Under the pieces are notes generated by a model. The model searched no databases. It was not told where the DNA came from and worked only from the letters and a program-made list of their open reading frames with translations. This document shows, piece after piece, positions 3,622-42,457 of a stretch of DNA of 64,000 nucleotides (position 1 is the first letter of the stretch; each line of letters opens with the position of its first letter). Both the position numbers and the translations under genes were made by a program. This DNA is from an uncultured Chloroflexia bacterium (lineage in GTDB: Bacteria > Chloroflexota > Limnocylindria > Limnocylindrales > CSP1-4): the NCBI GenBank assembly GCA_963736895.1, contig CAVTQU010000010.1, forward strand, positions 131,111 to 195,110, read 5' to 3'.

Positions 3622-3622
3622 G

Positions 3623-5682: not shown

Positions 5683-5717
5683 GGGCAGGAAGCGTCGCGC
5701 TTAGACTCAGCCGACTG

Positions 5718-7314
<1,597 letters not shown>

Positions 7315-16346: not shown

Positions 16347-16365
16347 TTCTGTGCCTGGCGCGCTC

Positions 16366-16581
16366 TTAGCTGAGCAGAACTATCGCCAAGCCGATTGCGA
16401 TGATCACCACGAAGCCAACGATGATCGCGAGAAGGACTGTGCGGCCGATTGAGCCGTCGGTGCGATCGCCGCGGTCCGAACCCCGACCCGCAGCGTCCTG
16501 GGCATTCAAGTCGTCAGCAACGTCGTTGGACAGTTGCTCGCCCAGCCGACCGTACTGGTTGCCGTGGAAGGTCATTGCCAA
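16366..16581 (-). CDS. hypothetical small tail-anchored membrane protein (71 aa)
   Basis: The ORF has an acidic/Gly-rich N-terminal part and a single C-terminal TM, TVLLAIIVGFVVIIAIGLAIVLLS. Third-position GC is moderately high by eye. No recognisable family. Confidence 0.4.
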   Translation of the reverse strand: MAMTFHGNQYGRLGEQLSNDVADDLNAQDAAGRGSDRGDRTDGSIGRTVLLAIIVGFVVIIAIGLAIVLLS

Positions 16582-18886: not shown

Positions 18887-19877
18887 ATGAGCCTCCAGGG
18901 CTTGCGTGGGCCGTCGCCGGCGGCAGTTGATATGGAGGAAGGGCACTTGCCTGTGATGGTGCAGGAGGTATTGGAGTCTCTTGCACCCGCTCCGGGCAGC
19001 CTCCAGATAGATGCAACCGTCGGTGGCGGAGGGCACTCCGTGCGAGTCCTGGAGGCCGCCAATCCGGACGGCCGATTGCTCGGCCTGGACGCGGATGCGG
19101 CAGCCATTGCAAGGACGGCCAATCGACTGAAGGGGTATGGCGACCGAGTGACGCTCCGCCAGACGAACTTCGAGCACCTCGCCGACGCGGCGGCCGAAGC
19201 GGGATTCGTTCCGGCCGATGGGGTGCTGTTCGACCTGGGACTCAGCTCGTACCAGCTGGCGGACGAAGAACGCGCGTTCAGCTTTCGAGCCGAGGGTCCG
19301 CTGGACATGCGCTTCGACACCTCGCGCGGCGTTCCGGCGAGCCAGCTGATCGCGGAGATGGACGAGCAGCAGCTGACGACGCTGTTCCGGCAGTACGGCG
19401 AGGAGCCGCACGCGCGCCGCATCGCTCGAGCGATCGTGGCCGCGCGCACGCAGGAACCAATCGAGACGGGCACGCAGCTGGCCGACATCGTGAGCCGCGG
19501 CCGCTCCGGCGCCGCCACGCGGCCGACGTCGGGTGCATCCGGCGACGCGCGTCTTCCAGGCGCTGCGCATCGCGGTCAACGAGGAACTAGAAACTCTCCC
19601 AAGAGCGCTTGAGGCGGCCGTCGACGTGCTGGGCGACGGCGGCCGCCTCGCGGTCATCAGCTATCACTCGCTGGAGGACCGCATCGTGAAGCGCTTCATC
19701 GCCGCGGAGCGCCGCGGCTGCACGTGTCCGCCGGAGTTTCCGGTGTGCGTCTGCGGCCGATCGCCGCGCCTCGCGTTGATTGGCCCGCAGCCGCGGCGCC
19801 CAACGGCCGAGGAGATCGAGCGCAACCCGCGATCCCGTAGCGCACTGCTGCGCGCGGCACGAAAGCTGGCCGCATGA
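18887..19877 (+). CDS. rsmH: 16S rRNA (cytosine1402-N4)-methyltransferase RsmH, one frame disruption
   Basis: [41 protein letters not shown] and [13 protein letters not shown], then a break near 19510, then [21 protein letters not shown]...[15 protein letters not shown]. Alternative start ATG 18932. Confidence 0.9.
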
Positions 19878-20481: not shown

Positions 20482-22332
20482 ATGCTCGGTCGGACTGACA
20501 GCCGCGCACGGCTGCTACTGCTGCTCTGCTTCCTGGGTCTGTTTGCCGGTGCCCTGACGCTGCGCCTTGCCTACTGGCAGATCGGCCAGGGCGATGAGCT
20601 CCGGACGCTCGCCGACCAGCAGCTGGCCAATCCGGCCGAAGCGCAGACGAGACGCGGCGAGATCGTCGACAGCCGCGGATCGGTTCTCGCCACCACGGCC
20701 TATCGAGACCGACTGGCCGCGTATCCCGACCTGATGAACAGCGAGGATCGCCCCAAGATCGCGCGACGGCTGGGCGAGATCCTGGGCATGAACGGTCAGC
20801 AGGTCGACGACCTGATCTCGACCTTCGATGCGGCACCGCAGTACACGGTCGTCGCCCGACGACTCACCGTCGACCAGAGCGACCAGGTGCGCGAAGGGCT
20901 GCGCGGCGGCGAGCTCGCGGCGCTCGAGCTCGATCCCCAACCGGTTCGCTTCTACCCCAACAGCGGCGGCTATCCCGACACGACGCTCGCCAGCCAGCTC
21001 CTGGGTTTCGTCACGGACGACGGCCAGGGCCGCTACGGCATCGAGCAGTTCGGGCAGGATCTGCTCGCCGGCACGGACGCTGCTACCGCAGATCTCGGGG
21101 CGGACCTCGGAGCCGACGCTCCGGCAGACTGCCGCAGTCGGGCGAACAGGTCCAGCTGACCATCGATGCCAGCCTGCAGCTGCGACTCGAGAAGGAGCTC
21201 TACGCCGCGTGGGTCGCCGACCAGGCGCCGCGTGTCACGGGGCTCGTCATGGATCCGTACACGGGCGCGATCCTGGCCTGGGCCTCCGTGCCCGGCTACG
21301 ACGCCAACGATTACGTCGATACGGCCGAGAACTGCGCCCGAGCTGTTTGCCGATCCCATCGTCAGCCAGGTGTACGAGCCGGGATCGGTGATGAAGATGT
21401 TCACGGCCGCGGCGGCGCTCGAAGAGGGCGTCGTCAACCTGAACACTCCCGTGGCCGACGGTCGCGTCCTGCGAATCGGCCCCGACGAGGTACGCAACGG
21501 CGACCTCGACAGCATCGGCACCGTGCCGTTCCAGGACATCATCGCCAGGTCGCGTAACGTCGGAGTCGGGAAAGGTCGCGCTGAATCTCGCAAACACCAC
21601 GGACGCCGGGCGCAGTCGTCCTTTATGACATGTGGCAGAGGCTGGGCATTGGTCGCCCGACCGGAATCGAGCTGGGAAACGAATCGACGGGCATCGTCGC
21701 CGACCCACTGGCGACGCCGTGGCAGACGATCGACCTCGTCAACCGCGCCTTCGGACAGGGCGTTGCGGTGACGCCACTTCAGCTGGCGCGCGGCTTCAGC
21801 GCGATGATCAACGGCGGCAACCTGGTCACGCCGCACCTCGTCGAGTCGCTGGGCGGAGAAGCCGTCTCGTCGCAGGAACCGCAGCAGGTCATGGAAACGG
21901 GTCTGTCCGAACAAGCTCCAGCAGCTGATGATCCACGTCGTCGAGGCCGGCCCGCATTACGCTGCCGAGACGCTGATCCCGAACTATGTCGTGGGCGGCA
22001 AGACCGGCACGGCACAGATCTGGGACCAGCAGGCCGGTGCGTGGATGATCGACACCTACAACCACACGTTCATCGGTTTCGTTGGCTCCGAGAAGCCGGA
22101 GGCGGTCATCCTGGTACGCATCCACGACACCGAGCCGCACGTCAAGCGCAGCTGGGGAATGACCCTGGAGATGTCCTCGAACGAGCTCTTCCGACGGGTC
22201 GCCATGGACGCCATCACGACCATGGACATTCCGCCACTTGCGCCGGATTCGCCACTCCAGGAAGCGCCGGAGGAGATCCAGCCGTATCCCGCCGACCAGC
22301 CAGCCGCCGGCGGCACGATCGACTGGCCCTGA
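20482..22332 (+). CDS. ftsI: peptidoglycan D,D-transpeptidase FtsI (class B PBP), about 5 frame disruptions
   Basis: N-terminal TM plus dimerisation domain (20482..21159). The reading continues through frames near 21120, 21335, 21575, 21608 and 21915. All catalytic motifs are retained: SVMK (SxxK), SRN (SxN) and KTGT. The C-terminal piece is 21928..22332. Confidence 0.88.
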
Positions 22333-22359
22333 CGGGCTCTCGCAGTAGGATGTGCGGCC

Positions 22360-23741
22360 TTGGCTGATCGGGTAGGTGGCGCCGGCGCGAGCGTCGCTTT
22401 CGATGCAGCGTCCCTGGCGAGTGCCGTCAACGGTGCGATCGTGCGCGAGGGGCGTGCGTCGATTCGCGGCGGAGCTGTTGATTCCCGTCGTGTAGAGCCG
22501 GGCAATGCGTTCTTCGCGCTCCCCGGCGAGCGAACCGACGGCCATCGGTTCCTGGCCGATGCCGCCCAGCGAGGCGCGGCCGCGCTGGTGGTGTCGCAGG
22601 ATGTCGCCGACGACGACCTTGGCGACGCAGCGGTGATCAAGGTTGCCGACACGACTGTCGCGCTACAGCAGGCCGCCGCCGAATGGCGCAACCGGTTCGA
22701 TCTCCTGGTCGTCGGCGTGACCGGTTCACTCGCGAAGACATCGACCAAGGAGCAGATCGCCGAGGTTCTCTCCGAACGCTGGACGGTGCTGCGCAACGAG
22801 GCCAACGAGAACAACGAGATCGGCCTGCCGCTGACGATGCTGCGCATCGGGCCGGAACATGAGGTCGCGGTCCTCGAGATGGGCATGTACGAGCCCGGCG
22901 ACATTGCACTGCTCGCGGCACTGGCACGGCCGTCGATCGGCGTCGTGACTGCGGTTCGCGGCACGCATCTTTCGCGGGCGGGAAGCATCGACGAGATCGA
23001 ACGCGGCAAGCGCGAGCTGGTTGAGGCACTTCCCAGCGGCGGCACGGCCATCCTGAACGCCGACGATCCGCGCGTCGCCCGGATGGCCGACCACGTTGCT
23101 CCCGGCGTGGACGTCGTCACCTACGGCTTTGACGAACGAGCAGACGTCCGCGCCGAGCACGTCACGTCGCTCGGCTATGACGGGATGCGTGTTCGAGCTC
23201 CGCGCCGACAACGATGCGATCGACGTGACGATGCCCGCGCTGGGTCGGCACAGCGTCCACAACGGCCTCGCCGCGGCGGCCGTTGGCCTGGCGGCAGGGA
23301 TGGAGCTCCCGGCGATCGCGCGTGGACTTGCTCGACCGTGGAGCGCGCCGCATCGCACGCACGATCATCGACCTCGGGCCGATCAAGGTTCTCGACGACA
23401 GCTACAACGCCAGCCCGGACTCGATGATCGCCGCGCTCGACCTGCTGGCCAGCCTGCCCGGCCGCCACGTCGCCATCCTGGGCGAGATGCTGGAGCTCGG
23501 CGACTCGTCGGCAGATGCCCATAGTCGGGTGCTCGATCATGCCGGCAATACGGCCGACGTCATCCTCGCCGTGGGTCCGTATCGCGGCGGTCGGTCAAAG
23601 GACGCGGTGCTCGCCGACGTGGAACACATCGTGCGGCCGGGCGATGTCGTCCTGATCAAAGGCTCGCGCGGCGCGGCCATGGAGGAGTTCCTTCCGGCCC
23701 TGGAAGCCGCCGCGGACCGTATGAAGGCGCCGGTTAGATGA
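22360..23741 (+). CDS. murF: UDP-N-acetylmuramoyl-tripeptide--D-alanyl-D-alanine ligase MurF, two frame disruptions
   Basis: VGVTGSLAKTSTKE (P-loop variant), the NENNEIGLPLT MurF signature, and DDSYNASPDSMIAALDLL. Breaks near 23185 and ~23345. ATGA overlap with mraY. Confidence 0.87.
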
Positions 23742-29576: not shown

Positions 29577-30697
29577 ACAGCACCCGGATCGCGGTCGTGC
29601 TGGGTGGTCCGTCGGCCGAGCACGACGTGTCGCTCGTCTCGGGCCGTGCGATCGCTGCCGCACTCTCCGAGCGCGGCCACACCATCGACGGCTGGCTGGT
29701 TGATCTGGATGGGCGCTGGTGGCAGCTGCCGGCGGCTGCCATGGATCGCGGGCTGGCACGGACTGCATACGACGATCCGAGGGCGCTCGAGGCACGTGGG
29801 CCACTTTCGGCCGGCCAGGCCATGGACCAGATGCGTGCCACCGAGCCCGTGCCGGTCGTCTTCATCGCACTCCACGGCCCGTTTGGCGAGGACGGCACGG
29901 TCCAGGCGTTGTGCGAGGCGGCTGGGCTGACATACACCGGGGCGGGTGTCGCGGCATCTGCCATCGGGATGGACAAGGTCATCTTCAAGCGCCTCACCAA
30001 GGGATTGGGCATGCCCGTCGTGCCGTGGATCGAGCTCTCGGCCGTGGAGTGGCAGGACGATCCCGCCGCAGCCCAGCGGCGCATCGCTGATTTCGCCACG
30101 TCCATGCCCGACGCGCGCGTGGTCGTGAAGCCGACCCGACTCGGATCGTCGGTGGGCATCTCGATCGTCCACAAGCCAGGCGATCCCGAGTACACAGGCG
30201 GCGCCGTCACCGATGCGCTGCGCTACGGCGACTCCGTCCTGGTCGAGGCATACCTGGATCATGCCCGTGAGCTGGAGATGAGCGTTCTCGGCAACTCGGA
30301 GCACGATCTTGAGAGCTACGGACCGGGGGAGATTTTCCCGGGTCACGAGTTCTACGACTACACCGCCAAATACAGCGACGGCGTCTCGCGCACCACCGAG
30401 CGCGCCGACGTTGACGGCGACATGCGCTCCAGGATCCATGACATCGCGCGCCGGGCATACCTGGCAATCGGAGCCGCCGGGTTCGCGCGCGTGGATTTCA
30501 TGCTCGATAAGGACGGCGCGCTGTACCTCAACGAGATCAACACAATTCCCGGCTTCACTCCGATCAGCCTCTTTCCAGTGATGTGCCGCGAGGGTGGCTA
30601 CGACTTCGGCGCGATCTCGGAGAAGATCGTTGAGCTCGCGCTGGCACGGGCCGCGGCGCAACCTGCACTGCGGCTGACCCGCGCCGACCTGCCTTAG
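29573..30697 (+). CDS. ddl: D-alanine--D-alanine ligase
   Basis: ATGA overlap with murB. RIAVVLGGPSAEHDVSLVSG, ALHGPFGEDGTVQ and LNEINTIPGFT (ATP-grasp). Confidence 0.95.
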   Translation: MNSTRIAVVLGGPSAEHDVSLVSGRAIAAALSERGHTIDGWLVDLDGRWWQLPAAAMDRGLARTAYDDPRALEARGPLSAGQAMDQMRATEPVPVVFIALHGPFGEDGTVQALCEAAGLTYTGAGVAASAIGMDKVIFKRLTKGLGMPVVPWIELSAVEWQDDPAAAQRRIADFATSMPDARVVVKPTRLGSSVGISIVHKPGDPEYTGGAVTDALRYGDSVLVEAYLDHARELEMSVLGNSEHDLESYGPGEIFPGHEFYDYTAKYSDGVSRTTERADVDGDMRSRIHDIARRAYLAIGAAGFARVDFMLDKDGALYLNEINTIPGFTPISLFPVMCREGGYDFGAISEKIVELALARAAAQPALRLTRADLP

Positions 30698-31570
30698 GTG
30701 CGACTGGTCACGCGACAACCGGTAGCCGGGGGACGGACTCGACGGGCATCGTCCCGTAACCGTGGCGTGTTTGCGCTGGTGACCCGCTGGCGCGTGGCGG
30801 GTCTGGTCCTGGCGCTCTCGACGGCGGCGTTGTTCGCGGCGCTGGTGACGAGCCACCAATTCGACCTAACGCAGATCCAGGTGAGCGACCTCGTTTACAC
30901 GCAGCAGGCCGACATCGACGCAGCAGTTGGGCTGCCCGCTGGCGCCACGCCCAACATCTTCCGCATCGACACCACGCGAATGGCACGCGCTCTCGTCACG
31001 TTGCCCGCGGTCGCCAGTGCCAACGTCTACGTGACGCTTCCGGATCGGCTGGTCGTTGATGTCACCGAGCGGACGCCCACCTTCGTCCTTGCCACGCCCA
31101 CTGCCGCGTACGTCCTTGACGTGGACGGATTCGTCCTCGACGAGGTGCCCGTCGCCGATGCATCCAGCCTCGGACTGCCGGTGATCACGGACCTGCGCGA
31201 CCAGTTCGCGCCGGTCCTGGACGTCGGCGGACGGCTCGACGAGGTGTCGCTGGATGCCGACCTGCGACTGGCGGCGATCACTCCGGCCACGATCGGCACG
31301 AGCTATAGCGGGTTAACAGTGACGGCGGACGACACCAACGGCTACGTCCTCACCGCAGAACCCGGTGGTTGGCGCGCGATTTTCGGCCACTACACGCCCA
31401 ACCTGCGGCCAATCGACATCTTCGACACCCAGGTTCAGTGCCTGCGCGCCCGAGTGGGGGCCGGCGAGTCGGACATCGCGGTCATCTACCTGGCGCCGCT
31501 CGACGACAAGTGCGGGACATTCCTGCCGCGCAGCACTCCATCGGAGACCCTGTCTCCGGCTCCCAATTGA
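30698..31570 (+). CDS. ftsQ: cell division protein FtsQ/DivIB (POTRA domain)
   Basis: GTG immediately after the ddl stop. One TM (VAGLVLALSTAALFAALV) is followed by a POTRA-like region (IQVSDLVYTQQADIDAAV...). Canonical position before ftsA. Confidence 0.8.
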   Translation: MRLVTRQPVAGGRTRRASSRNRGVFALVTRWRVAGLVLALSTAALFAALVTSHQFDLTQIQVSDLVYTQQADIDAAVGLPAGATPNIFRIDTTRMARALVTLPAVASANVYVTLPDRLVVDVTERTPTFVLATPTAAYVLDVDGFVLDEVPVADASSLGLPVITDLRDQFAPVLDVGGRLDEVSLDADLRLAAITPATIGTSYSGLTVTADDTNGYVLTAEPGGWRAIFGHYTPNLRPIDIFDTQVQCLRARVGAGESDIAVIYLAPLDDKCGTFLPRSTPSETLSPAPN

Positions 31571-31590
31571 TTCGGTCCCGCTAGGCGAGA

Positions 31591-32835
31591 ATGACACCAA
31601 TGGAACGTGAAGCAGTACTCGTCGCCCTCGACGTAGGGACGAGCAAGGTCGTGGCGCTCATCGGCGAGGTGACGCGCGAGACGGGCGTCACCGTCATCGG
31701 CAAGGGCTCGGTTGGATCCTCCGGTCTGAAGAAGGGCGTCGTGATCAACATCGACCAAACGGTCGGGTCGATCAAGGCCGCCCGTGAGGCCGCGGAGCGC
31801 CTGTCCGGCTATCGGATCGAATCGGCGATCGTGGCCGTCGGTGGAAACCACGTCGAATCGCAGAACTCCCGTGGAGCGGTCGCCGTCAGCGGGGCGCGAC
31901 GCGAGGTCAGCCGCGAGGACATCGAGCGCGCGACCGAGGTCGCCAGGGCGGTCAGCATCCCATCCAACCGCGAGGTGCTCCATGTGCTGCCGCGCGGCTT
32001 CGTTGTCGACGGCCAGGAGGGCGTCAAGGATCCGCTGGGCATGAGCGCGGTGCGGCTCGAGGTGGAGACGCACATCGTCCACGCCGGCGCGACGGCGGTC
32101 CAGAACCTGACCAAGTGCGTGCAGCGCGCGGAGATCCGCATCGACGAGCTCGTCTCGTCCGCGCTCGCTTCGGGCGACGCGGTCCTGACCGAGACGGAGC
32201 GCGAGCTGGGCGTGGCCGTCGCTGATTTCGGAGCTGGCACGATCGACCTCGCGCTGTACATGGACGGCTCGCCCTTCCACACGGCCGTTCTGCCGCTCGG
32301 TGGAAACAACGTCACCAATGACGTGGCCATCGGCCTGAAGACGAGCCTGACCGCCGCCGAGGAGCTGAAGATCAAGCACGGCACGGCGGATCCGTCATTG
32401 ATCGTGGAGGACGAGGACGTCGAGGTCGAGGGGATCGGCGAGGGCGACGCCACCACGGCCTCGCGGCGCGAGCTCTCCGAGATCATCGAGGCACGCATGC
32501 GCGAGGTCTTCGAGAAGATCGGCGAGGAGATCGAGCGTGCCGGCTACAAGGGCATGCTGCCCGCCGGCCTGGTCATGACCGGTGGCGCGGCCGAGCTGGC
32601 GGGCACCGCCCGATTGGGCAGGGAAGTGCTCCAGGCGCCGGTGCGAATTGCCGGCCCAACCGGCGTCGACGGCCTGACCGACCATCTCCTGACTCCGGCG
32701 TTCAGCACTTCGCTCGGACTGTTGATGTGGGGTGCCAGATCGGTGCAGGGCTACGAGCCGGCGCACTACGAGTCAGGCCCAACGCCGGGAATGATAAATC
32801 GCATGCGCGACTGGGCACGGGGACTGTTGCCGTAA
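31591..32835 (+). CDS. ftsA: cell division protein FtsA
   Basis: Intact 414-aa actin-fold protein: VALDVGTSKVVALIGE, DFGAGTIDLAL, GVVMTGGAAEL-like (GLVMTGGAAELAG). Confidence 0.95.
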   Translation: MTPMEREAVLVALDVGTSKVVALIGEVTRETGVTVIGKGSVGSSGLKKGVVINIDQTVGSIKAAREAAERLSGYRIESAIVAVGGNHVESQNSRGAVAVSGARREVSREDIERATEVARAVSIPSNREVLHVLPRGFVVDGQEGVKDPLGMSAVRLEVETHIVHAGATAVQNLTKCVQRAEIRIDELVSSALASGDAVLTETERELGVAVADFGAGTIDLALYMDGSPFHTAVLPLGGNNVTNDVAIGLKTSLTAAEELKIKHGTADPSLIVEDEDVEVEGIGEGDATTASRRELSEIIEARMREVFEKIGEEIERAGYKGMLPAGLVMTGGAAELAGTARLGREVLQAPVRIAGPTGVDGLTDHLLTPAFSTSLGLLMWGARSVQGYEPAHYESGPTPGMINRMRDWARGLLP

Positions 32836-32839
32836 GACC

Positions 32840-34133
32840 GTGTCGCAACACGTAACCGTGTCGACTTCACAGCCGGCTGTGGCCCAGCACAACCCGCTGA
32901 CGCTTACGTTTGTCGACCCCGCAGTCGAACGCGAATACCAGCTCGCCGGAAGGATGAGCGCGGCGGACCGTCGATCCAGCTACCTCGGCTCGGCCGTTCT
33001 CTTTGCCATTGCCGGTCTGATCGTGCCGCTCGTCACATCCATTCCACCCACAGTGGCATACGTGCTGGCGGGCTTCGAAGTGGTCCTGAACCTGGTTGCC
33101 TACGTGGTTGTCGGGCGGCTCAACACGCGGGCGACGCAGGGCCGCGTGAGCGTCGTCTTGAACCTGCTCGCTGGCGTAGTCGTCCTGACCCTGGCGGGCG
33201 CTTCCGGGCAATTCGACCTGTACGCAGCCCCCGGCGTGATGGCCGTGATCCTGGTTGGGCTGGTCTCGGCGCGTCTTCGGTTCACTCATTCGGTGATCGT
33301 TGCGGTTGGGCACGTCGCCATATTTCTGGCATTCGCCCAGCGCTTTGCCACGGACCAGGTGCTGTTGCAGCTGTTCTTCGTGGTCACAGCCGCCACGGTC
33401 GGCGCCATCGGAACTTACGTGCTCGAGAACCAGAGCCGGCAACTGTTCGCCCAAAGCCAGCTGATCGCCTCGCTACACGCCCAGGTCGACCGACTCTTCC
33501 ACCAGTACCTGTCACCTGCGGTGGCGGAAACCTTGCTTACGGCACCGGAGCGGAGCGAGCTTGGCGGCGAGCTCGCCGAGGTCTCCGTGCTGTTCGCTGA
33601 TCTGCAGGGATTCACGTCGTTCTCGGAGCGGACCGATCCAGAAGCGGTCGTCCGACTGCTGAACGAGTACTTCGACAGCGCGGTCCCGCCGATCCTGCGG
33701 GAAGGCGGCACGATCACGCAGTTCGCCGGCGATGCGCTCATGGCGATCTTTAACGCCCCGCATCGCCAACCCGATCACGCGCGACGAGCCGGGACGGCGG
33801 CGCTTGCAATTCAGGCGGCCATAGAGCCGATCGCCGCTCTCGCCTCTGACCGCCCACATTTTCGCGTCGGCATTGCGACCGGTCCGGCGCTCGTTGGCAA
33901 CGTCGGCAGCACCGATGTGCGCAACTTCACAGCCATCGGCGACACGACGAATCTCGCTGCCCGACTGCAGACGTTCGCGGAACCAGGTCAGGTGGTGATC
34001 AGCGACAGGACGCTCGAGCTCCTCGGGCCCGGCCGACGTGGAGCCGCTTGGCGCACCGGCGCTCAAGGGCAAAAGCCTACCGGTGAAGGTCTACCACCTG
34101 CGCGCGCTTCGTGACGTTCCGGTCGCGGCATGA
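32840..34133 (+). CDS. membrane-anchored class III nucleotide (adenylate/guanylate) cyclase, 6 TM + CHD, one frame disruption
   Basis: GTG 4 nt after the ftsA stop. About six TM helices, then VSVLFADLQGFTSF...FAGDALMAIFNAP...IGDTTNLAARLQ...PGQVVIS. Skipping one base near 34034 gives the C-terminus ...LLGPGDVEPLGAPALKGKSLPVKVYHLRALRDVPVAA, whose TGA overlaps the yjbQ ATG. Confidence 0.85.
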
Positions 34134-34534
34134 AGCACGCCCAGATCACCTTCAGCACCGGTCGCAAACGCGGGCTCTTCGACATCACCCGTGAGTGCGC
34201 CAACTTCGTCAACGGCGAGGGCGACGGCCTGCTCAATGTCTTCGTGCCGCACGCCACGGCGGGCGTTGTGATCATGGAGCTGGGCGCCGGGTCAGACGAG
34301 GATCTGATGACTCGACTCGACGAGCTTTTGCCACGCGACGATCGGTGGCGGCACGCCCACGGATCGGCCGGCCATGGCGCGGATCACGTCCTGCCGCTGC
34401 TCGTTCCGCCGTCGGTTGTGGTGCCCGTTGTCAACGGCCAGCTGGGCCTCGGGACGTGGCAGTCGATCGCCCTGCTGGATCCCAACCAGGACAACGACAT
34501 GCGGACCGTGACCCTCACTTTCCTACCCGGCTGA
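34130..34534 (+). CDS. yjbQ: YjbQ/UPF0047 family protein (secondary thiamine-phosphate synthase-like)
   Basis: Intact 134 aa. ...DITRECANFV...GLLNVFVPHATAGVVIMELGAGSDEDL...HAHGSAGHGADHVLPLLV...LGLGTWQSIALLD is typical of the family. ATGA-coupled to the cyclase. Confidence 0.85.
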   Translation: MKHAQITFSTGRKRGLFDITRECANFVNGEGDGLLNVFVPHATAGVVIMELGAGSDEDLMTRLDELLPRDDRWRHAHGSAGHGADHVLPLLVPPSVVVPVVNGQLGLGTWQSIALLDPNQDNDMRTVTLTFLPG

Positions 34535-34661
34535 GGCATCGCCGTGACGAAAAAACGACGCGGCATGCCCAGTTACGTGCCCTAGTCTGTCGCGCAGTCG
34601 ACGGCGACTTGCGTGTGGGGCCGCAAGTGTCCGCCGGCGAACGGTGCGAGGGGTAAGGATC

Positions 34662-37600
34662 ATGACTGCCACGGCGCCGACTGGGTCGGTGACGCTGATG
34701 TTCACCGATATCGAAGGCTCGACGAAACTGCTCGAACGCCTTCGCGATGGCTATGCGCTGGTGTTGGAGCAGCAACGTGATCTGCTGCGCGCGGCCTTCG
34801 AGAGCCATGAGGGCTTCGAGGTCGACACGCAGGGCGATTCGTTCCTCGTGGCCTTCTCTTCAGCTGTCGCGGCACTCCTCTGCGCGACAGAGATCCAACG
34901 GTCGATCGCCGCCCACGAGTGGCCACTCGGCGCCGACTTACGCGTTCGGATAGGCATCCACGCCGGCCGTCCCGTGCTGGCTTCGACAGGCTACGTGGGC
35001 GTTGATGTCCACCGCGGAGCTCAAATCGGCGCGGCGGCGCACGGTGGCCAGGTTCTCCTCTCTCGGGCCACACGAGATCAGCTCGACCCATCGCAGGACG
35101 AGCGCTTCAGCTTCGACGACCTGGGTATGCACAGGTTCAAGGGCCTAACGGAGCCCACGGCGGTCCTCGGTCTGCGCATCGAAGGTCTGACCACGGATTT
35201 CCCGCCGATCAGGGCATCCGCACCTGAAGACGAACCCCCAGCGCCGGGCGATCCGCCGTACAAAGGCCTCCTCCGCTTCGAAGCCGAGGACTCAGGCCTC
35301 TATTTCGGCCGCGAGGCGCTCGTCGCCCAGGTGGCGGCGGCCGTCCGCTCGCAGCCGTTCATCGCCGTCGTCGGCGCATCGGGAAGCGGCAAGTCGTCGC
35401 TCCTTCGCGCCGGTGTCATCCCCGTTGTCTCGGACGCCGGTTCGTTCGCGAACGTGACCGTCATGACGCCGACGGCCGACCCGTTGGAAGCTGGTGCCGA
35501 AGCCCTCGAGGGCTCGGGACTGCTCGTGGTCGACCAATTCGAAGAGCTGTTCACCCTCTGCCACGACGACCGTCTTCGGCACGACTTCGTGGCACGGTTG
35601 ATGAATGCAGCGCAGGGCGGCCTGCACGTGTTGATCACTCTTCGCGCCGATTTCTACGTCGCGGTATCTCAATTTCCCGAGCTGCGTCAGGCGGTCGCTG
35701 ACAACCAGTTCTACATCGGTCCAATGGAACGAGACGATCTGCGCCGGGCAATCGAGGAACCGGCACGCCGTGGGGGTTGGGAGATCGCGCCCGGCCTGGT
35801 TGATCTGCTCTTGCGGGACATTGGCAACGAACCAGGCGCACTTCCGCTCCTGTCACACGCGTTGCTCGAGACGTGGCATCGCCGGCGTGGCAGTCGGATG
35901 ACTCTCAAGGGCTACTTCGAGTCAGGGGAGGTAAGCGGCGCTATCGCCCGAACCGCCGACCGGCTCTACGCCGAGCTGCCAGACGCCGAACGACATGTCG
36001 CGCGCAACATCCTCCTTCGATTGACTGAGCTCGGCGAGGGGGCGCAGGACACTCGCCGGCGGGCGGCGCTGGTCGAGCTCGTGCCATCCGGTGGAGCTCA
36101 GGGCACCAACGATGTGCTGCGCAGGTTGATCGATGCGCGATTGGTAACAGTCGACGACGGGACCGCCGAGGTTGCCCACGAGGCGCTCATCCGCGAGTGG
36201 CCCCTGCTCCGTGGATGGCTCGAGGACGACCGCGAGGGCTTGCGTGTCCAGCGTCAACTGACCGACGCGGCGGGCGAGTGGCACGCGCTGGCGCACGAGT
36301 CCAGCCTCCTGTTTCGCGGCGCGCGGCTAGCCACCGCCCGCGAGTGGTCGGCGGCACATCCTGGCACTCTCACCGATAGCGAATCGGAATTTCTGGCTGC
36401 GTCGATAGATGCTGAGGAGAGCGATGCGCGCGAGCGGGCCGAACAGCAGCAGCGGGAGCTCGAGGCCGCACAACGCGCCGCCGAAGCCGAGCGCCGTCGA
36501 GCTGAGGATCAGGCGGCCGCAGCTCGACGTCTGCGTCGACGCGCCTACATCCTGGTTGGAGCCGTTGTCATCGCCGCCGGGCTCGGCGTCGCCGCGGTTG
36601 CCTTCGCCCTCCGAGCCAATGAGCAGACCGATATCGCCCGTGACCAGACAACAATCGCGCAGGAGCAGCAGGCTGAAGCTGAAGCGCAGCGAGCCACGGC
36701 CGACGAGCAGAGAACGCTGGCGGAACAACGCCAGCGTGACGCCGAGGAGCAGCGCAGCACCGCGACTTCGCGCCAGCTCGCCGTGCAGGCTGCTGCGAAC
36801 TTGCCCGACCTTGACCTGTCCCTGCTGCTGAGCATGGAAGCTCTCCGCCACAGCAATTCGTTAGAGGCACGTCAGAGCCTCTTGAACGGGCTTCTCTCTG
36901 AGCCGCAGCTCCAGGCCTTGGCGCGAATCCCTGGCCGCGCCGAAAGAACATGGTTCTGGGGTGAGGGGAAATCGTGTCGCGACTATCAGCGCCGATGGTC
37001 AGGTACGCACGTGGAGCATCATCGACGGCGGCCGACTGGAGCCAGGCGCTGAGTTCTCGACCAGCGACCACGTGAGTGTCGAGCCAAGTCCTGACGGCTC
37101 ACGGCTTGCGACTCTGCTGGACGACGAGCTGAAGGTCTGGTCGATCGAGTCCGGCGAGATGATCGATCGGTTTGTCGTTTGTGGCGACGGGGGCCATGCG
37201 GCGGGCGTCGCCTGGAGTCCCGATGGCAGTCGGCTTGCCGCTTCGTGTGGTGCGGTGAACCCGGTCGTTGAGAGGGATCCGGAGGCATCACCCTGATCGA
37301 CCTGGTGAGCCCACGAGTCGACTGTATTTGGGGCAGGTTATGCGCGCGACCTGGTTTTCTCGCCCGACGGGCGCCTCGTCGCGGTGCTGACTACGACGCA
37401 GAGTTCCAGCGCGGCCATAGGCAGACTCGTCGACGGGGAGGTGCACGACTCCGGCGCCACTTCGATCATGTTCGACACCGTCGAGGGCGGCACCGCCGTC
37501 CAGATCTGGAACGTCTCCGATTCAAGCCTCGTGTCCGAGCTGCCGCCGGGCAACGGGCGAAGCATTTGTCGCGTTCAGTCCTGACAGCAGGAAGGTCGCG

Positions 37601-38893
37601 TTCGCGTACATCGATGCATCGGATCGATCCGCGTCTCGACGTGTGGGGCGTTGATGGGCCTGATCGTCTCATCTCCGTCGCAATGGACCGGATCTCTAAT
37701 GGCCCCCCGATCTTTGGATCGGATGGCCGGACGATCGCCGTCACTACCGACGAGGGCGGCCGACTCCTGGACGCTGAAACGGGCGACCTGTCGAATCCGT
37801 TGGTCGGCTGTTCGGAATTGCGAAGCCCGCAATTCAGCCCCGACGGCACGCGGCTGGTCGGCGTCTGCCGCGACATCCCCACGGAGCCAACGGTGTTCGT
37901 CTACGACATCTACGGAGGCTTGGCACGCAAGCTTGCTGCTCACGATGTGACCCTGGCGGACATGGCATTTGGATCCGATGGTCGCTTTGCTTCGATCGCC
38001 CAATCCGAGAACGGCGCTACGTCGACCGTGGCCCTGTGGCAGCTCGACCTGCCGAAATCGACTCTCGCAGACGTCTGCCACGTTGACCGGCCAAGACTCC
38101 GTCGTTGGCTTGTCGGGGGACGGCAGGACGACCCTCGAGTATTCAACCTCGGGCGAAGTTTTCTTGCGTGATGCAGTCGACGGCGGCTTATCTCGGGAGA
38201 TCAGGTGTCCGATCACGTCCGAAGGGGCGTCGGGGTCCCAGTTGGTTCAGGCGGCCGGTTCATACATCGCCTGTGTCGGCGGTAGCGGAGAGGACATCGA
38301 GGTACATGACTGGGACGACGGCCGCCTGCTCGTCACATTGAAACCCGACGCTCAGGAAGCGGGGGCAGTCCGAACCATGCAGCTCTCACCCGATGGCCGG
38401 ACTCTCTTCGCGTCTTTCTTCCCAACCGACGCAGATGAAGCATCCACTGCCGTCTGGTCATCGGCCTGGAGCACGGAGGATGGCACGGAGCGCCTTCGAC
38501 TCCAGGACGGCGCGGAGGCCGTTGCCTTCAGTGCGGATGGATCACGAATCGCGATCGGTATCGACGAGGAGATCGCGGTTTTCGAAACCGAGTCCATGGT
38601 CTAGGCTCGCCACGCTGGCAGGTCATGACGCGCAGGTCGGGGCACTCGCGTTCGATTTGGCCGGGGACGCCCTGGCTTCCGGAGATGCCAACGGCGTGAT
38701 CCTCCTGTGGAGCACGACCACCTGGCAGCAGTCCGGCGCGCCGCTCGCGCTGGCTCGGCGGTCCGAAACTTGGCCTCATTTGGCTCCATGTTTGGTTCAT
38801 CCGGCGCCGGTTCCGTGGCGTAACTGGCCGCAGGCATGTGACCTTCCAGCCTCGTCGGCGTTGGGTTCGTCCGGAGCTGGCTCGGTGGCGTAA
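34662..38893 (+). CDS. multidomain signalling protein: class III cyclase-like domain + STAND-type P-loop NTPase + single TM + WD40/beta-propeller repeats; at least 8 frame disruptions, 3' end uncertain
   Basis: ATG 34662 with GGTAAGGA upstream; the ORF is open from 34644.
- CHD: VTLMFTDIEGST...TQGDSFLVAF.
- NTPase: PYKGLLRFEAEDSGLYFGRE, Walker A VVGASGSGKSSLLRAG, Walker B LLVVDQFEELF, and HEALIREWPLLRGWLEDDREGLRVQRQL.
- TM: YILVGAVVIAAGLGVAAVAFAL, at 36541-36612.
- Repeats: VAWSPDGSRLAAS, LVFSPDGRLVAV, FVAFSPDSRKVAF, QFSPDGTRLVGV, MQLSPDGRTLFAS, VAFSADGSRIAIG and LAGHDAQVGALAFDLAGDALASGDANGVILLWS.
- These lie in pieces 36961..37296, 37384..37584, 37305..38171, 37969..38604 and 38393..38893. 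Confidence 0.75.
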
Positions 38894-38904
38894 AACCGTG
38901 GCAT
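38790..38904. repeat. 70-bp-period tandem duplication at the 3' end of the WD40 gene, upstream of ftsZ
   Basis: The two copies start at 38790 and 38860. The first 34 nt of each match at 28 of 34 positions. All 6 mismatches fall on positions that are synonymous in the minus-strand frame, which encodes YATEPAPDEPN in both copies. Confidence 0.8.
38797..38904 (-). CDS. candidate small ORF (35 aa as written) with strong SD; first of two tandem MPxxxYATEPAPDEPN units
   Basis: GGAGGGAG lies 5 nt upstream of ATG 38904, giving MPRFYATEPAPDEPNADEAGRSH... A second unit starts at ATG 38837 with GGAAGG 4 nt upstream, giving MPAASYATEPAPDEPNMEPNEAKF... The second ATG is +1 out of frame with the first. 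True extent is unresolved. Confidence 0.3.
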   Translation of the reverse strand: MPRFYATEPAPDEPNADEAGRSHACGQLRHGTGAG

Positions 38905-39229
38905 ATCAACTCCCTCCTTTTCGCGATCGCTCGACGGCGAGCGTGGACAGATCGTCGAGAGTAACCGCGGCCGCCCGACATCGGCCAGAGGACGAGTTCC
39001 GTGTCATCCCACCGACACGGGTGCCGACTGTTGACGAGCCCCAGGACTGTCCACATTTTCTCCACATTCGAGCCCGAAAGGGCAACCGAAACGGTCCTCG
39101 CCGGGACCAAAGTGCCCGCCTCGGCCTGAGGGTGCCGGTCTATACTCGGCCGCATCCGAATCGGTGCCCGGCGGCAGCGCCCTAGCCGGCCCGGTAGGGT
39201 GTATTTAGGCGGTTTGTTGGAGGGTTGTG

Positions 39230-40454
39230 ATGCCGTTGCGGTCGGACTCGGAGAACTTCGCACTTATCCGGGTCATCGGGGTAGGCGGCGGCGGAAGTAA
39301 CGCCGTCAACCGGATGATTCGAGCGGAGTTGATGGGAGTCGAGTTCATTGCCGTCAACACCGACGCGCAGGCTCTGCTGCAGTCAGACGCACCGCACAAG
39401 ATCCGCATCGGCGACAAGATCACGCGCGGCCTGGGCGCCGGCGGAGATCCCGGCATCGGCCAGCGTGCGGCCGAGGAGGACGCCGAGAAGATCTTCGAGG
39501 CGCTCAAGGACTCGGACATGGTCTTCATCACGGCGGGCATGGGCGGCGGCACCGGATCCGGCGCCGCGCCGGTCATCGCGGAGGTGGCGCGTGACCTGGG
39601 CGCACTGACCATCGGCGTCGTCACCAAGCCGTTCTCCTTCGAGGGCGCCAAGCGCCGCCTCAACGCGGAGAAGGCCACCGAGGCGCTGCGCGACAAGGTC
39701 GACACGCTGATCACGATCCCCAACGACCGGCTCAGGGACGTCGTCCAGAAGGAAACGATCGATCGTCGACGCGTTTCGCGTCGTCGACGACGTGCTGCGC
39801 CAGGGTGTCCAGGGCATCAGCGACCTCATCACGGTCCCGGGCCTTATCAATCTCGACTTTGCCGACGTGCGAACGGTCATGAAGGACGCTGGCTCTGCCC
39901 TGATGGGTATCGGCCGCGCCAGTGGCGAGGGCCGCGCGACCAAAGCCGCCCAGGAGGCGATTGCCAGCCCGCTGCTCGAGGTCAACATCAGCGGCGCGCA
40001 GGGTGTGTTGTTCAACGTCACCGGCGGGGCAAGTCTCAGCCTGTTCGAGGTCGACGAGGCCGCGGAGATCATCCGCGCCACGGCTGACCCGGAGGCGAAC
40101 ATCATCTTCGGCACGGTCATCGACGAGCGGATGGAAGACGACATCTCGATCACGGTGATCGCCACCGGGTTCGACTCGTCCCGCAAGCGTGACGTCGTCC
40201 GGACACAGACGCAGATGCCCGCCGAGGTGGCCAGCGAGCTGCGTGTCGCGCGCGAGCGCGAGGCCGTCCGCGAGATGGAGCTCGAGGAGAGCCCGTACAC
40301 GGCGATCCCCGTGACTCCGGAGAGTGACGGACTGCCCACTGCGGCCGTCGTCGCGCCACGCACCGATCAGCGGGCCCAGCCGATGCCGGCGCGCGGTCCA
40401 CAGGCCGAGCTGGAAGACCTGGACATCCCGGCGTTCCTGCGCCGGCACCGCTGA
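39230..40454 (+). CDS. ftsZ: cell division GTPase FtsZ, one frame disruption
   Basis: GGAGGG lies 5 nt upstream of ATG 39230; GTG 39227 is also in frame. [17 protein letters not shown], the tubulin signature [13 protein letters not shown], and NDRL. There is a break at 39757-39765, within GATCGATCG; removing one ATCG unit restores ...[27 protein letters not shown]. The C-terminal peptide is [10 protein letters not shown]. Confidence 0.93.
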
Positions 40455-41167
40455 CCACCAGCGCCGATAGCGAGGCTCTGCGCAGAGCCCATCAACAGGT
40501 CCTCGACCGGATAGTTTCGGCCGCGAACCGCGTCGGTCGCGACCCGTCGGAGATAAGCCTCGTCTGTGTTTCCAAGTCGGTTTCGGCTGCCCGGTTGCAG
40601 GCCGCGGTTGCAGCCGGCATGACAACGTTTGGTGAGAACCGCATCCAGGAGGCCGAGTCGAAGGCGCCCGACGTGCCGGGTGCGAGCTGGCGGCTGGTAG
40701 GTCACCTGCAGGGCAACAAGGCCGCCCGGGCAAGCCGACTCTTCGACTCGATCAATTCCGTCGACTCCCTTGCATTAGCCCGCCGGCTGAGCGAGCTGGG
40801 GCATGACCAACGCGACGGCCGGCCAATACCGGTCCTTCTCCAGGTCAACGTCGACAGCGATCCTGCCAAGGAGGGCTTCGATCCAGCCGTTCTTGAATCA
40901 ACTCTGCCGGAGCTTCTGGCTCTCCCGGGCCTGGACGTCCAGGGCTTGATGACTGTGGGCCGGATGGTCGATCGGGCGGCGGAAGCTCGACCAACCTTCG
41001 TCAGCCTGCGCCGGCTGAGCGAGCGACTGCGGCGCGTGGAGTCGGGCCTGGGATTCCAGCTTTCGATGGGCATGAGCGACGACTTCGAGGTGGCGGTGGA
41101 GGAGGGAGCGACGATGGTTCGGGTGGGCCGGGCCATCTTCGGTGAGCGCGCCGGCCCTACGACCTAG
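40451..41167 (+). CDS. yggS: PLP-binding homeostasis protein YggS/YlmE; CTG start inferred
   Basis: ...[33 protein letters not shown]...[12 protein letters not shown]...[28 protein letters not shown]. Family homology extends about 48 codons upstream of the first canonical start (TTG 40595), and there is no in-frame ATG/GTG/TTG in that stretch. CTG 40451 overlaps the ftsZ TGA. Confidence 0.82.
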
Positions 41168-41188
41168 TCGACCTATACTCGGGCCACG

Positions 41189-41446
41189 GTGGACGTCTCA
41201 GCATTTCTGCGCGTCTTTGTTGAGCTGCTCGTCACGGTCCTGTTTCTGGTCGTTACCGGCCGCGTCCTGATCAGCTGGATCAATCCCCAATTCGAGGGCC
41301 CAGTGGCGCGATTCCTCTTCGAAACGACCGAGCCGCTTCTCTCGCCGATCCGACGTGTCCTGCCGAAGACGGGCGCAATGGACCTTTCGCCGCTGGTCCT
41401 CAGCCTGGGGCTGCTGATCCTGATGCGCGTCCTACTCGTCCGGTAG
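41189..41446 (+). CDS. yggT: YggT/YlmG family membrane protein
   Basis: 85 aa with two TM helices and the conserved ...EPLLSPIRRVLP..G.DLSPLV motif. Standard ftsZ-ylmE-ylmG neighbourhood. Confidence 0.8.
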   Translation: MDVSAFLRVFVELLVTVLFLVVTGRVLISWINPQFEGPVARFLFETTEPLLSPIRRVLPKTGAMDLSPLVLSLGLLILMRVLLVR

Positions 41447-41476
41447 GGGATAATCCTCAGGTCCTGGCGACATCTT

Positions 41477-41552
41477 GGGCGATTGGCTCAGTGGTTAGAG
41501 CACTCGGTTCACATCCGAGGGGTCACTGGTTCGAATCCAGTATCGCCCACCA
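41477..41552 (+). tRNA. tRNA-Val (anticodon CAC), CCA encoded
   Basis: Manual cloverleaf. Acceptor GGGCGAT/ATCGCCC, D arm GCTC/GAGC, anticodon stem CTCGG/CCGAG with loop TTCACAT, T arm ACTGG/CCAGT with TTCGAAT, and 3' ACCA. A T5 run follows. Confidence 0.95.
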
Positions 41553-41576
41553 TTTTTCCTGACCTCCTCGACCTTC

Positions 41577-41623
41577 TTGACACGGATCGATCAATGGCTA
41601 CACTTAACCATTATGTTAAGTGT
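41577..41623 (+). promoter_or_regulatory. candidate arsR promoter (leaderless) with overlapping inverted-repeat operator
   Basis: -35 TTGACA at 41577-41582, a 16-nt spacer, and -10 TACACT at 41599-41604. The ATG at 41613 is 9 nt after the -10. The inverted repeat ACACTTAAC (41600-41608) N6 GTTAAGTGT (41615-41623) spans the -10, the transcription start and the start codon. Confidence 0.5.
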
Positions 41624-41975
41624 CGTGCCACAGCGGACGAGCGAAGAACTGGATCTGCTGTTTGGTGCGCTGGCTGACGCCACGCGCCGGGGCATCGTCG
41701 AGCGACTCGCAGTCGGGGAGGCGACGGTGACGGAGCTCGCAGCTCCGTATTCCATCAGTCTCCCGGCGATCTCCCGCCACCTCAAGGTGCTCGAGCGTGC
41801 GTCGCTCATCACCCGAAGCCATGAAGGCAGGTGGCGCAACGCGCGTCTCTCTCCGACGTCGCTGGCCGGCGCTGCGACATGGCTCTTGCAGCAGGAGAGG
41901 CTCTGGGCCGAGAGGTTCGACCGGCTCGACGACCACCTCGCTCGACTCACCGAAACCGAGAAAGGAACGCCATGA
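41613..41975 (+). CDS. ArsR/SmtB-family transcriptional regulator
   Basis: LFGALADATRRGIVERLAVGEATVTELAAPYSISLPAISRHLKVLERASLI is a winged HTH. The ORF is open from TTG 41577, but that TTG is part of the -35 hexamer. ATGA overlap with the next gene. Confidence 0.85.
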   Translation: MLSVVPQRTSEELDLLFGALADATRRGIVERLAVGEATVTELAAPYSISLPAISRHLKVLERASLITRSHEGRWRNARLSPTSLAGAATWLLQQERLWAERFDRLDDHLARLTETEKGTP

Positions 41976-42457
41976 CCACGACGACAACTCCTGAACTCGT
42001 CCTGACTCGCATCGTCAATGCGCCACGCGCGCTCGTTTACCAGGCGTTCACAGATCCTGATCAGTTCGCGTCGTGGTGGGGCCCCATCGGCAATTCACTG
42101 CCCCGCGACGAGGTCGAGTTCGACGTGCGCCCCGGCGGCTATCAGAAATGGTCGGAGGTCTTTCCAGCGCAACCGGACAATTGGACCCGCGGACGCATCG
42201 ACCTTACGGACGTCGTCGACGGCGAGCTGCTCGATGGCGTCATGAGCATCACTGGCCAGCTGCCGGGAGGCTTCAAGCCGTTCGAGACCAGGATGCGCAT
42301 CGAGTTCCACGACGAGGCCGACGGACGGACGCGCCTCGAGATCAGCCAGTGGCTCCCGGAGCACCTGGTGGCCCCAACTCAGAACGGCTGGCGCGAGGCG
42401 TTCTCCAAGCTGGACGCCACGTTGGTCAAACCAGAACCGTCAACGACCCGGGCTTGA
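41972..42457 (+). CDS. SRPBCC-superfamily protein (Aha1/activator of Hsp90 ATPase homolog 1-like domain)
   Basis: LVLTRIVNAPRALVYQAFTDPDQFASWWGP...GWREAFSKLDATL. This is the classic gene pair with an ArsR regulator. Confidence 0.82.
   Translation: MTTTTTPELVLTRIVNAPRALVYQAFTDPDQFASWWGPIGNSLPRDEVEFDVRPGGYQKWSEVFPAQPDNWTRGRIDLTDVVDGELLDGVMSITGQLPGGFKPFETRMRIEFHDEADGRTRLEISQWLPEHLVAPTQNGWREAFSKLDATLVKPEPSTTRA

Follow-up and report, generated by a model that had tools for sequence, protein, structure and literature searches.

A cyclase and STAND gene island between ftsA and ftsZ in an uncultured soil Limnocylindria genome

Why should ftsA and ftsZ, two division genes whose adjacency is strongly conserved elsewhere, stand 6,394 nt apart (ftsA stop to ftsZ ATG) in one bacterium, and does the DNA between them have anything to do with division? 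The question is raised by a 64,000-nt stretch of contig CAVTQU010000010.1 (hereafter the window, meaning the whole stretch analysed), taken from an uncultured soil Candidatus Limnocylindria genome (Chloroflexota). A sequence-only reading of the window had placed the two genes 6.4 kb apart inside the dcw (division and cell wall) cluster. It had named in the gap a cyclase (CYC1 below), a YjbQ/UPF0047 gene and a gene for a cyclase-like/STAND NTPase/transmembrane (TM)/beta-propeller protein (the STAND gene below), and had proposed that cyclic nucleotides (cNMP) serve there as a checkpoint on division or as an abortive switch. The distance held, and all of the named genes were recovered with Pfam. 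The switch did not fare as well: the cargo of the gap varies between relatives, CYC1 was seen at this site in no other genome and the STAND gene is shared with one genome. We favour, at a probability of about 0.6, the reading that the insert is an accessory signalling and stress module occupying a permissive slot within the dcw cluster of Limnocylindria and not a dedicated division device.

The gap is bordered, and in many relatives occupied, by the following genes.

31591-32835, + strand: ftsA, left border of the gap (Pfam FtsA and SHS2_FTSA)
34130-34534, + strand: yjbQ/UPF0047 (Pfam UPF0047, E 1.9e-26)
39230-40454, + strand: ftsZ, right border of the gap (Pfam Tubulin and FtsZ_C on two open reading frames (ORFs); ORF match from 39227)

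The FtsA of the window is 88-91% identical to FtsA of Limnocylindrales metagenome-assembled genomes (MAGs). The interval was compared across 80 species-representative loci around close FtsA relatives (L001-L080); with the addition of one further locus, L081, 77 contained both ftsA and ftsZ. yjbQ lies between the two in 48/77 loci and is not found there in 29/77, the median gap being 733 nt in the former and 182 nt in the latter; in seven loci the gap is wider than 1.2 kb. Eight metagenome contigs also carry yjbQ inside the ftsA-ftsZ gap. Judging from this comparison, yjbQ is the ancestral resident of the gap in Limnocylindria. Other cargo, confirmed by Pfam or by ORF reading, was found on both sides of it. 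An ECF sigma factor and a large unannotated ORF lie between ftsA and yjbQ in L009 (2226-4224) and L025 (11276-14147), and a HIT protein occupies the same slot in L056 (11234-11725). A 1-Cys peroxiredoxin gene lies between yjbQ and ftsZ in L002 (11750-12409) and in metagenome contigs L168 (873-1529) and L174 (584-1315). Evidently two slots, ftsA|yjbQ and yjbQ|ftsZ, took up DNA repeatedly. Routine separation of ftsA and ftsZ by unrelated cargo, which the sequence-only reading had itself set against its switch, is thus largely what the synteny comparison returned. Neither CYC1 nor the STAND gene was present at the locus in any of the 80 representatives, and the STAND gene is missing from four other species whose FtsA is equally window-like (88-91%). 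The result is that an adjacency strongly conserved in other bacteria is broken across a whole Chloroflexota class, with yjbQ as a stable resident. No literature was found that links YjbQ to division, or that describes this arrangement in work on Limnocylindria cell division. Nor was a description of cyclase or STAND genes of this kind in a dcw cluster found in the literature.

How the separation is tolerated can be seen immediately upstream of ftsZ.

39023-39229, + strand: ftsZ leader/promoter region (blastn conservation in L001-L006 and L081; alignment)

The DNA sequence of approximately 200 nt upstream of ftsZ is conserved in relatives, whether or not their gap carries cargo. The leader contains the invariant blocks TTGACG (39031-39036), TATACT (39141-39146) and CTGTCCACA, with GGAGGG before the ATG. 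A consensus promoter and terminator scan of 31400-39400 gave zero promoter matches, flagging none of these blocks, and its terminator-like matches were at background level. Evidently, from this conservation, ftsZ has its own promoter region, which would explain why separation from ftsA is tolerated. The 320-nt upstream region reported earlier for ftsZ therefore does enclose a conserved leader; it also holds a minus-strand small gene and a palindrome, both overlooked in the earlier reading and described below.

Among the genomes examined, a STAND gene at yjbQ|ftsZ is shared by the window and L081 only. The FtsA of L081 is 90.5% identical to that of the window, and a 12.9 kb island lies between its yjbQ and ftsZ in the order yjbQ, orf184 (-), STAND1, orf73 (-), 1-Cys peroxiredoxin (prx), crp-like (-), orf105 (-), STAND2, orf98 (-), ftsZ. 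In a neighbour-joining tree of FtsQ, FtsA, YjbQ and FtsZ the window and L081 group together, next to the island-less L001-L004. The crp, prx and second STAND genes of L081 are missing from the window, and a search with the L081 Crp-like protein found no close relative. More distant STAND relatives are located elsewhere, away from ftsA, ftsZ and yjbQ. One MAG with a compact ftsA-yjbQ-ftsZ arrangement has a 60% identical STAND orthologue on a different contig, and among the matches listed for an alignment query, ftsA, ftsZ or yjbQ was near 0/80 remote loci of the STAND family. Searching with the STAND N-terminal region gave two short genome contigs, neither with flanking ftsA or yjbQ, and zero matches in metagenome contigs.

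The other slot of the window, ftsA|yjbQ, is filled by CYC1.

32840-34133, + strand: CYC1, six-TM class III nucleotide cyclase (Pfam TM and Guanylate_cyc, E 2.5e-23; unrepaired ORF to 34114)
about 32993-33409, + strand: TM region of CYC1 (hydropathy)
about 33575-34133, + strand: catalytic domain of CYC1 (Pfam Guanylate_cyc)

Hydropathy gave six hydrophobic segments, as had been claimed. CYC1 begins at most 43 nt past ftsA. A GTG is indeed present at 32840, 4 nt past the ftsA stop, but the public gene call (P0121) begins 13 codons later, which leaves the start uncertain. With yjbQ, an ATGA overlap exists only after repair of a +1 frameshift near 34025; the C-terminus thus restored, ADVEPLGAPALKGKSLPVKVYHLRALRDVPVAA followed by the stop (tail ADVEPLGAPALKGKSLPVKVYHL...), agrees with orthologues. 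These orthologues (70-76% identity) are found at a conserved hflX - small ORF - cyclase - methyltransferase locus, and in no genome other than the window was CYC1 found between ftsA and yjbQ. In L081 the place of CYC1 is taken by a 13-nt spacer between ftsA and yjbQ. The segment inserted there in the window is almost exactly ORF-sized, and the last ~14 nt of CYC1 come from the old spacer. Co-transcription of CYC1 with ftsQ, ftsA and yjbQ is, on spacing, the only reasonable expectation, since the gene lies no more than 43 nt from ftsA, overlaps yjbQ by ATGA and has no promoter or terminator match. To this extent the earlier suggestion of co-transcription with ftsQ/ftsA holds; it does not extend as readily to the STAND gene, which has its own upstream region.

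The solved structures closest to the CYC1 catalytic domain are Cya2 (2w01) and CyaB (3r5g), with E values of 1e-29 to 1e-33. When aligned to these, CYC1 keeps both metal-binding Asp residues and the transition-state Asn and Arg (FADLQGFT, AGDALM, GDTTNLAARL). The purine-binding Lys position is Gln in 111 of 120 CYC1 homologues, and the specificity pair in CYC1 is Gln/Thr, which is neither the canonical adenine (Lys/Asp-Thr) nor the canonical guanine (Glu/Cys) pair. CYC1 is probably an active cyclase with non-canonical base specificity. Its layout, six TM helices and then a single catalytic domain, is that of M. tuberculosis Rv1625c/Cya (PDB 7yz9, 7yzi). CYC1 differs from Rv1625c/Cya, Cya2 and CyaB in that its family has almost wholly replaced the adenine-binding Lys by Gln, and in its location between ftsA and yjbQ instead of at hflX.

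Most of the insert is a single receptor-like gene.

34662-38893, + strand: STAND gene (Pfam, homologues, frame path against L081 STAND2)
34644-37052, + strand: first ORF of the STAND gene, with Guanylate_cyc (E 2e-10) and nSTAND1 (Pfam)
about 34677-35144, + strand: cyclase-like domain (Pfam)
about 35256-36299, + strand: nSTAND1 nucleoside triphosphatase (NTPase) domain (Pfam, E 6.6e-116)
about 36549-36605, + strand: coiled coil and single TM helix (hydropathy)
about 36960-38773, + strand: WD40-type beta-propeller (WD40/PD40 Pfam pieces in other frames to ~38770)

The ATG at 34662 lies, as previously stated, 127 nt past the yjbQ stop and is preceded by a GAGGGG/AAGGA ribosome-binding site. Residues 205-552 match nSTAND1 (PF20703) over profile positions 1-377 of 379, and the Walker A (GASGSGKS) and Walker B (VVDQFEE) motifs do not vary among the 14 nearest homologues when these are aligned. 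Scoring covered more than 7,800 homologues, typically of 1350-1400 residues, mostly from Chloroflexota and annotated "WD40 repeat protein/class 3 adenylate cyclase". The closest (P0002, 72% identity) is encoded in L081. The claim of a protein of ~1400 residues was correct as to the domain order, including one TM helix, but about seven frame repairs are needed to read it and the last ~100 residues of the family are missing. Homology stops at ~38773 (..QQSGAPL), from where the open frame continues across the small gene, antisense to it, and stops at 38893. Full-length homologues continue for at least 41, typically 70-120, further residues and end in a conserved R.LT..EC..YL...C motif, of which the window holds no trace even when the gene is repaired.

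The N-terminal domain belongs, by its Pfam assignment, to the class III cyclase fold (PF00211) and is nearest to the active mycobacterial cyclase Ma1120 (4wp3). In a census of 112 such domains against Ma1120, both metal Asp residues are kept, Lys is replaced by Asp in 112/112 and Asn by Asp in 108/112, and the conserved Arg is retained in 111/112, the window alone having Gln. The complete catalytic set (Asp, Asp, Lys, Asn, Arg) is therefore not present in this domain. On these counts the active site is conserved and non-canonical, not randomly decayed. In at least 93 of 115 homologues the nSTAND1 domain is followed by a lone TM helix, whose N-terminal flank reads RRLRRR. From this the positive-inside rule predicts an extracytoplasmic position for the beta-propeller, which would make the protein receptor-like. 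An outside sensor is unusual for STAND/NLR-like proteins, and fits signal transduction better than cytosolic anti-phage sensing.

Cyclase-nSTAND1-WD40 proteins (PF00211, PF20703 and WD40) are known from Chloroflexota and Actinomycetota, and the window gene shares their domain order, length class, Walker motifs, TM helix and Asp/Asp site. It differs in lying inside a dcw cluster, in lacking the C-terminal ~100 residues and in having Gln at an otherwise invariant Arg. No literature was found on the function of the nSTAND1 and cyclase architecture. The mycobacterial proteins Rv0386, Rv1358 and Rv2488c offer a parallel of a similar kind. They combine an N-terminal class III cyclase, a STAND-type NTPase of the AAA_16/MalT-like type and C-terminal repeats, are cytosolic and end in a helix-turn-helix output; the substrate-specifying residues of Rv0386 are non-canonical (Gln/Asn). 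The STAND gene likewise fuses an N-terminal cyclase domain, an NTPase and C-terminal repeats and has non-canonical specificity residues, but with nSTAND1, a TM helix and a predicted extracytoplasmic beta-propeller, and with no DNA-binding domain. These cyclase-ATPase-TPR-LuxR proteins have been surveyed (PMC2447327). Whatever its role here, the STAND gene draws attention to a large family of receptor-like cyclase-nSTAND1-beta-propeller proteins.

The two STAND genes of L081 allow the origin of the window copy to be traced further. Before the TM helix it is nearer to STAND1 (74%) than to STAND2 (69%). After the helix it is nearer to STAND2, at 80% versus 35% in the first segment and 36-57% thereafter. 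Because the copy is STAND1-like before and STAND2-like after the helix, sensor domains are, as far as these identities tell, exchanged among STAND paralogues. A recent recombination between STAND1 and STAND2 in an L081-like ancestor was considered as a specific origin: the chimeric pattern fits, but the C-terminal identity to STAND2 is only 36-57%, which does not support a recent event.

Between the STAND gene and the ftsZ leader there are two further elements.

38748-38904, - strand: small acidic Pro-rich repeat gene (MPRFYATEPAPDEPNADEA..EGHMPAASYATEPAPDEPNMEPNEAKF...; tblastn to L081 orf73, orf105 and orf98)
39002-39017, no strand assigned: operator-like palindrome TGTCATCCCACCGACA (TGTCR-N6-CGACA), the only exact copy in the window

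The small gene starts at an ATG (38904-38902) with a strong Shine-Dalgarno sequence, AAGGAGGGAG, 5 nt upstream. It encodes EPAPDEP motifs, is frameshifted and is convergent with the STAND gene, and its 3' end has been lost together with that of the STAND gene. It seems that a single deletion of roughly 0.4 kb clipped both convergent 3' ends. The small gene has no Pfam match and only four database relatives, one of which likewise converges on the 3' end of a WD40 gene. Differences between its L081 counterparts orf73, orf105 and orf98 (14088-14309, 16100-16417 and 21034-21330) are enriched at third codon positions. On a soil Chloroflexota contig (L248), a Pkinase + Guanylate_cyc + PD40/Tricorn_N protein (3333-6506) is found 3.5 kb from a member of the small-repeat family.

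Alignment of five STAND upstream regions revealed no shared promoter block among them and exposed the palindrome. In the window it stands ahead of the ftsZ leader, on the side of the small gene, with 12 nt between it and the TTGACG box and 226 nt to the ftsZ ATG. Among 81 ftsZ loci it was near ftsZ in only the window (-226) and L081 (-224). L081 has four exact TGTCR-N6-CGACA sites, all intergenic within the island, versus 0.08 expected from 10 matches in 3.15 Mb of other loci. Palindrome positions there are 9923, 14410, 14455, 16512 and 21417, and the motif precedes STAND1, STAND2/crp and prx. A perfect copy in L168 (701-716) lies upstream of the peroxiredoxin gene and is unrelated to ftsZ. 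The 5-6-5 geometry suggests a candidate CRP-family operator. The L081 Crp-like protein carries FGEL...PRSAT, which we take to be the hallmark of a cNMP phosphate-binding cassette (CRP E72/R82/S83). Each copy of the palindrome is, however, 86-101 nt upstream of a minus-strand start (orf184, orf73, orf105, orf98 and the small gene of the window), and it may serve those minus-strand promoters and not ftsZ.

The frameshifts mentioned above bear on how far the insert can be regarded as functional. There is one in CYC1 (the +1 shift already given), approximately seven in the STAND gene (frame repairs at ~36960, ~37275, ~37308, ~37560, ~37625, ~38070 and ~38595) and one in ftsZ, which the earlier reading had passed over (+1, ~39760, in GATCGATC context, where tblastn passes from frame 2 to frame 3). 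A codon-usage frame scan revealed same-strand frame switches throughout the window, and Pfam found further housekeeping genes to be broken: ftsI (20482-22367) is in three pieces, mraW (18887-19612) and murE (22360-23427) are truncated, and a biotin carboxylase (accC-like, 3497-5429) and an ABC ATPase (59278-60629) are split. Sister long-read MAGs are alike: murB is broken in L081, and homologues of the STAND gene are divided over two or three genes. Several of the sites are in G-runs or other homopolymers or in GATC/GATCGATC contexts. Most of the frameshifts are probably long-read consensus or assembly errors, possibly tied to a methylated motif. They are not evidence of decay, because essential single-copy genes cannot all be dead, and a pseudogene reading of the STAND gene from frameshift density was set aside given that ftsZ, ftsI, murE, mraW, the accC-like gene and the ABC gene are affected alike. 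Frameshifts in long-read MAGs can thus mimic pseudogenes. The truncation of the STAND 3' end and the lone Gln for Arg are not accounted for by assembly error.

Taken together, these data suggest how an accessory module could have come to lie in the dcw cluster. In this class, ftsA and ftsZ would first have been separated by yjbQ. With the conserved promoter/leader kept by ftsZ, DNA inserted to the left or right of yjbQ would then not silence ftsZ, and different subclades would have fixed different cargo. In the subclade of the window and L081, the yjbQ|ftsZ slot would have acquired cyclase-nSTAND1 proteins and small acidic repeat genes with the shared TGTCR-N6-CGACA motif, to which the L081 version adds a Crp-type regulator and a peroxiredoxin. 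In the window the module would have been reduced to one STAND gene and one small gene, with the ~0.4 kb deletion clipping both 3' ends, and a promoterless copy of the hflX-locus type of six-TM cyclase would recently have landed in the 13-nt ftsA-yjbQ spacer. CYC1 would be transcribed by read-through from ftsQ/ftsA and presumably makes a cyclic nucleotide. Cyclases of class III work as dimers, and STAND NTPases form oligomers when activated. In intact STAND members, the extracytoplasmic beta-propeller might bind a ligand, the signal would cross the TM helix and nSTAND1 would oligomerise, thereby pairing the cyclase-like domains at the N-termini in the dimeric form required by class III cyclases. 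The steps of this mechanism are read from the order of the domains and from what is generally known about cyclases of class III and about STAND NTPases. The nucleotide product could be read by the Crp-type factor at the island operators. Any effect on division would then be a by-product of position.

Three other explanations were weighed. One is a coupling to division, in which the cyclases and the receptor STAND set a cNMP level and a Crp-type factor at the palindrome tunes ftsZ transcription, and with it division, under envelope or stress signals. This is improbable in our estimation, for all that CYC1 is packed within the ftsA-yjbQ transcription unit, that the palindrome stands 12 nt from TTGACG at -226/-224 in just the two island genomes among 81 loci, that the same motif recurs before STAND1, STAND2/crp and prx in L081, whose Crp-like protein retains what we take to be a cNMP-binding cassette, and that the site has retained a STAND gene while the division proteins diverged by ~16%. 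The palindrome falls outside the conserved leader of ftsZ, its spacing of 86-101 nt to minus-strand starts allows it to serve those promoters only, and the L168 copy is upstream of prx and away from ftsZ. Moreover, CYC1 is confined to the window, the STAND gene is absent from the four species with 88-91% FtsA identity and 3'-truncated here, and the window has no Crp gene. The palindrome leaves a small chance of regulatory coupling to ftsZ. In its strongest form, that a small Limnocylindria subclade built a cNMP regulon for tuning ftsZ (outside-sensing STAND receptors, a CYC1 driven by the division operon, a Crp-type factor and an operator by the ftsZ promoter), we regard the idea as very improbable. 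If true, and if the operator beside ftsZ is functional, it would be a new route from second messengers to bacterial division.

A conflict or programmed-death system, in which nSTAND1 senses an invader or non-self and a nucleotide signal arrests or kills the cell, along the lines proposed for STAND and cNMP-cyclase modules of multicellular bacteria, is quite unlikely. It draws on the definition of the nSTAND1 clade within predicted counter-invader systems (Kaur, Burroughs, Iyer and Aravind 2021, PMC8195603) and on the listing of cNMP cyclase domains, some inactive, among effector or signal domains of predicted conflict systems (PMC7159879). The presence/absence variation of the locus, the copy number of one versus two and the swapping of sensors between paralogues also fit. 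The window STAND shares the layout of antiviral STAND proteins (Avs, bNACHT), with an N-terminal output, central NTPase and C-terminal repeats. However, PADLOC defence models gave only mad3/mad8 matches to the STAND proteins, at P-loop level (E about 1e-4) and not above that noise, and membership of Avs/bNACHT was rejected for want of a curated-model match and because the sensor is predicted to be outside the cell and not cytosolic. CYC1 shares the cyclase fold of Pycsar PycC and matches the PycC models generically (E 4e-25), more weakly than it matches ordinary cyclases. Pycsar membership was rejected too, there being no adjacent effector with a cNMP-binding and a TM or TIR domain: no cNMP_binding protein was found in the island or the window, and the neighbours of CYC1 are ftsA and yjbQ. 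No adjacent toxin or cNMP-activated effector was seen, the sole cNMP reader predicted nearby is a transcription factor encoded in L081, and the surroundings are made up of housekeeping or stress genes and do not form a defence island. That the window STAND and small gene are functionless pseudogenes, the decaying remnant of a larger L081-like island, is unlikely. The final 1.9 kb of the STAND gene holds about seven frameshifts, its C-terminal ~100 residues went together with the 3' end of the small gene, the window is the sole sequence of 112 with Gln at the catalytic Arg, and crp, prx and a second STAND are gone. Against this, the same kind of break splits ftsZ, ftsI, murE, mraW, the biotin carboxylase and the ABC ATPase as well as murB and STAND homologues in sister MAGs, several breaks are at homopolymers or GATC, so that most are probably consensus errors, the STAND gene is unbroken over its first 2.3 kb and the Arg to Gln codon (CAG) abuts GATC.

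The accessory-module reading has its own weak points, and the following count against it. Since Lys to Asp and Asn to Asp are family-wide and Arg to Gln is found here alone, the STAND cyclase-like domain may not be a cyclase at all. The predicted location of the propeller derives from one helix and the positive-inside rule, and no experimental study of any cyclase-nSTAND1-WD40 member was found in the literature. There is no Crp gene in the window to read a signal. The words 'inherited' and 'permissive slot' draw on thin sampling, with two island genomes joined in the tree by a short branch. Finally, the operator near TTGACG and the tight ftsA-CYC1-yjbQ packing could reflect selected coupling. 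If the ordinary reading holds, the value of the finding is modest. The island stands in an unusual position, but its genes come from known and widely distributed families.

The insert is genuine and native-looking, and its closest homologues are all from Limnocylindria or other Chloroflexota. Insertion as a mobile element or genomic island was rejected. As had been noted from sequence, no integrase or transposase ORF flanks the insert; repeats are at chance level, there is no target-site duplication and the nearest tRNA (41477) is beyond yggT. The codon style, earlier called native, is near-native, with GC at third codon positions slightly lower (0.71-0.77 versus 0.80-0.89 in dcw genes). GC content of the insert is 0.63-0.66 versus 0.66-0.70 in the flanks. 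Upstream, the cluster ends as follows.

30698-31570, + strand: ftsQ (Pfam)

The window retains the canonical order mraW-ftsI-murE...murD-ftsW-murG-murB-ddl-ftsQ-ftsA...ftsZ. It departs from the canonical ftsQ-ftsA-ftsZ end in that ftsA and ftsZ are non-adjacent, with yjbQ between them as in most Limnocylindria and with extra cargo as in some. Downstream of ftsZ are yggS and yggT, directly followed by a tRNA (41477-41549), the sole Rfam match within 30000-42000.

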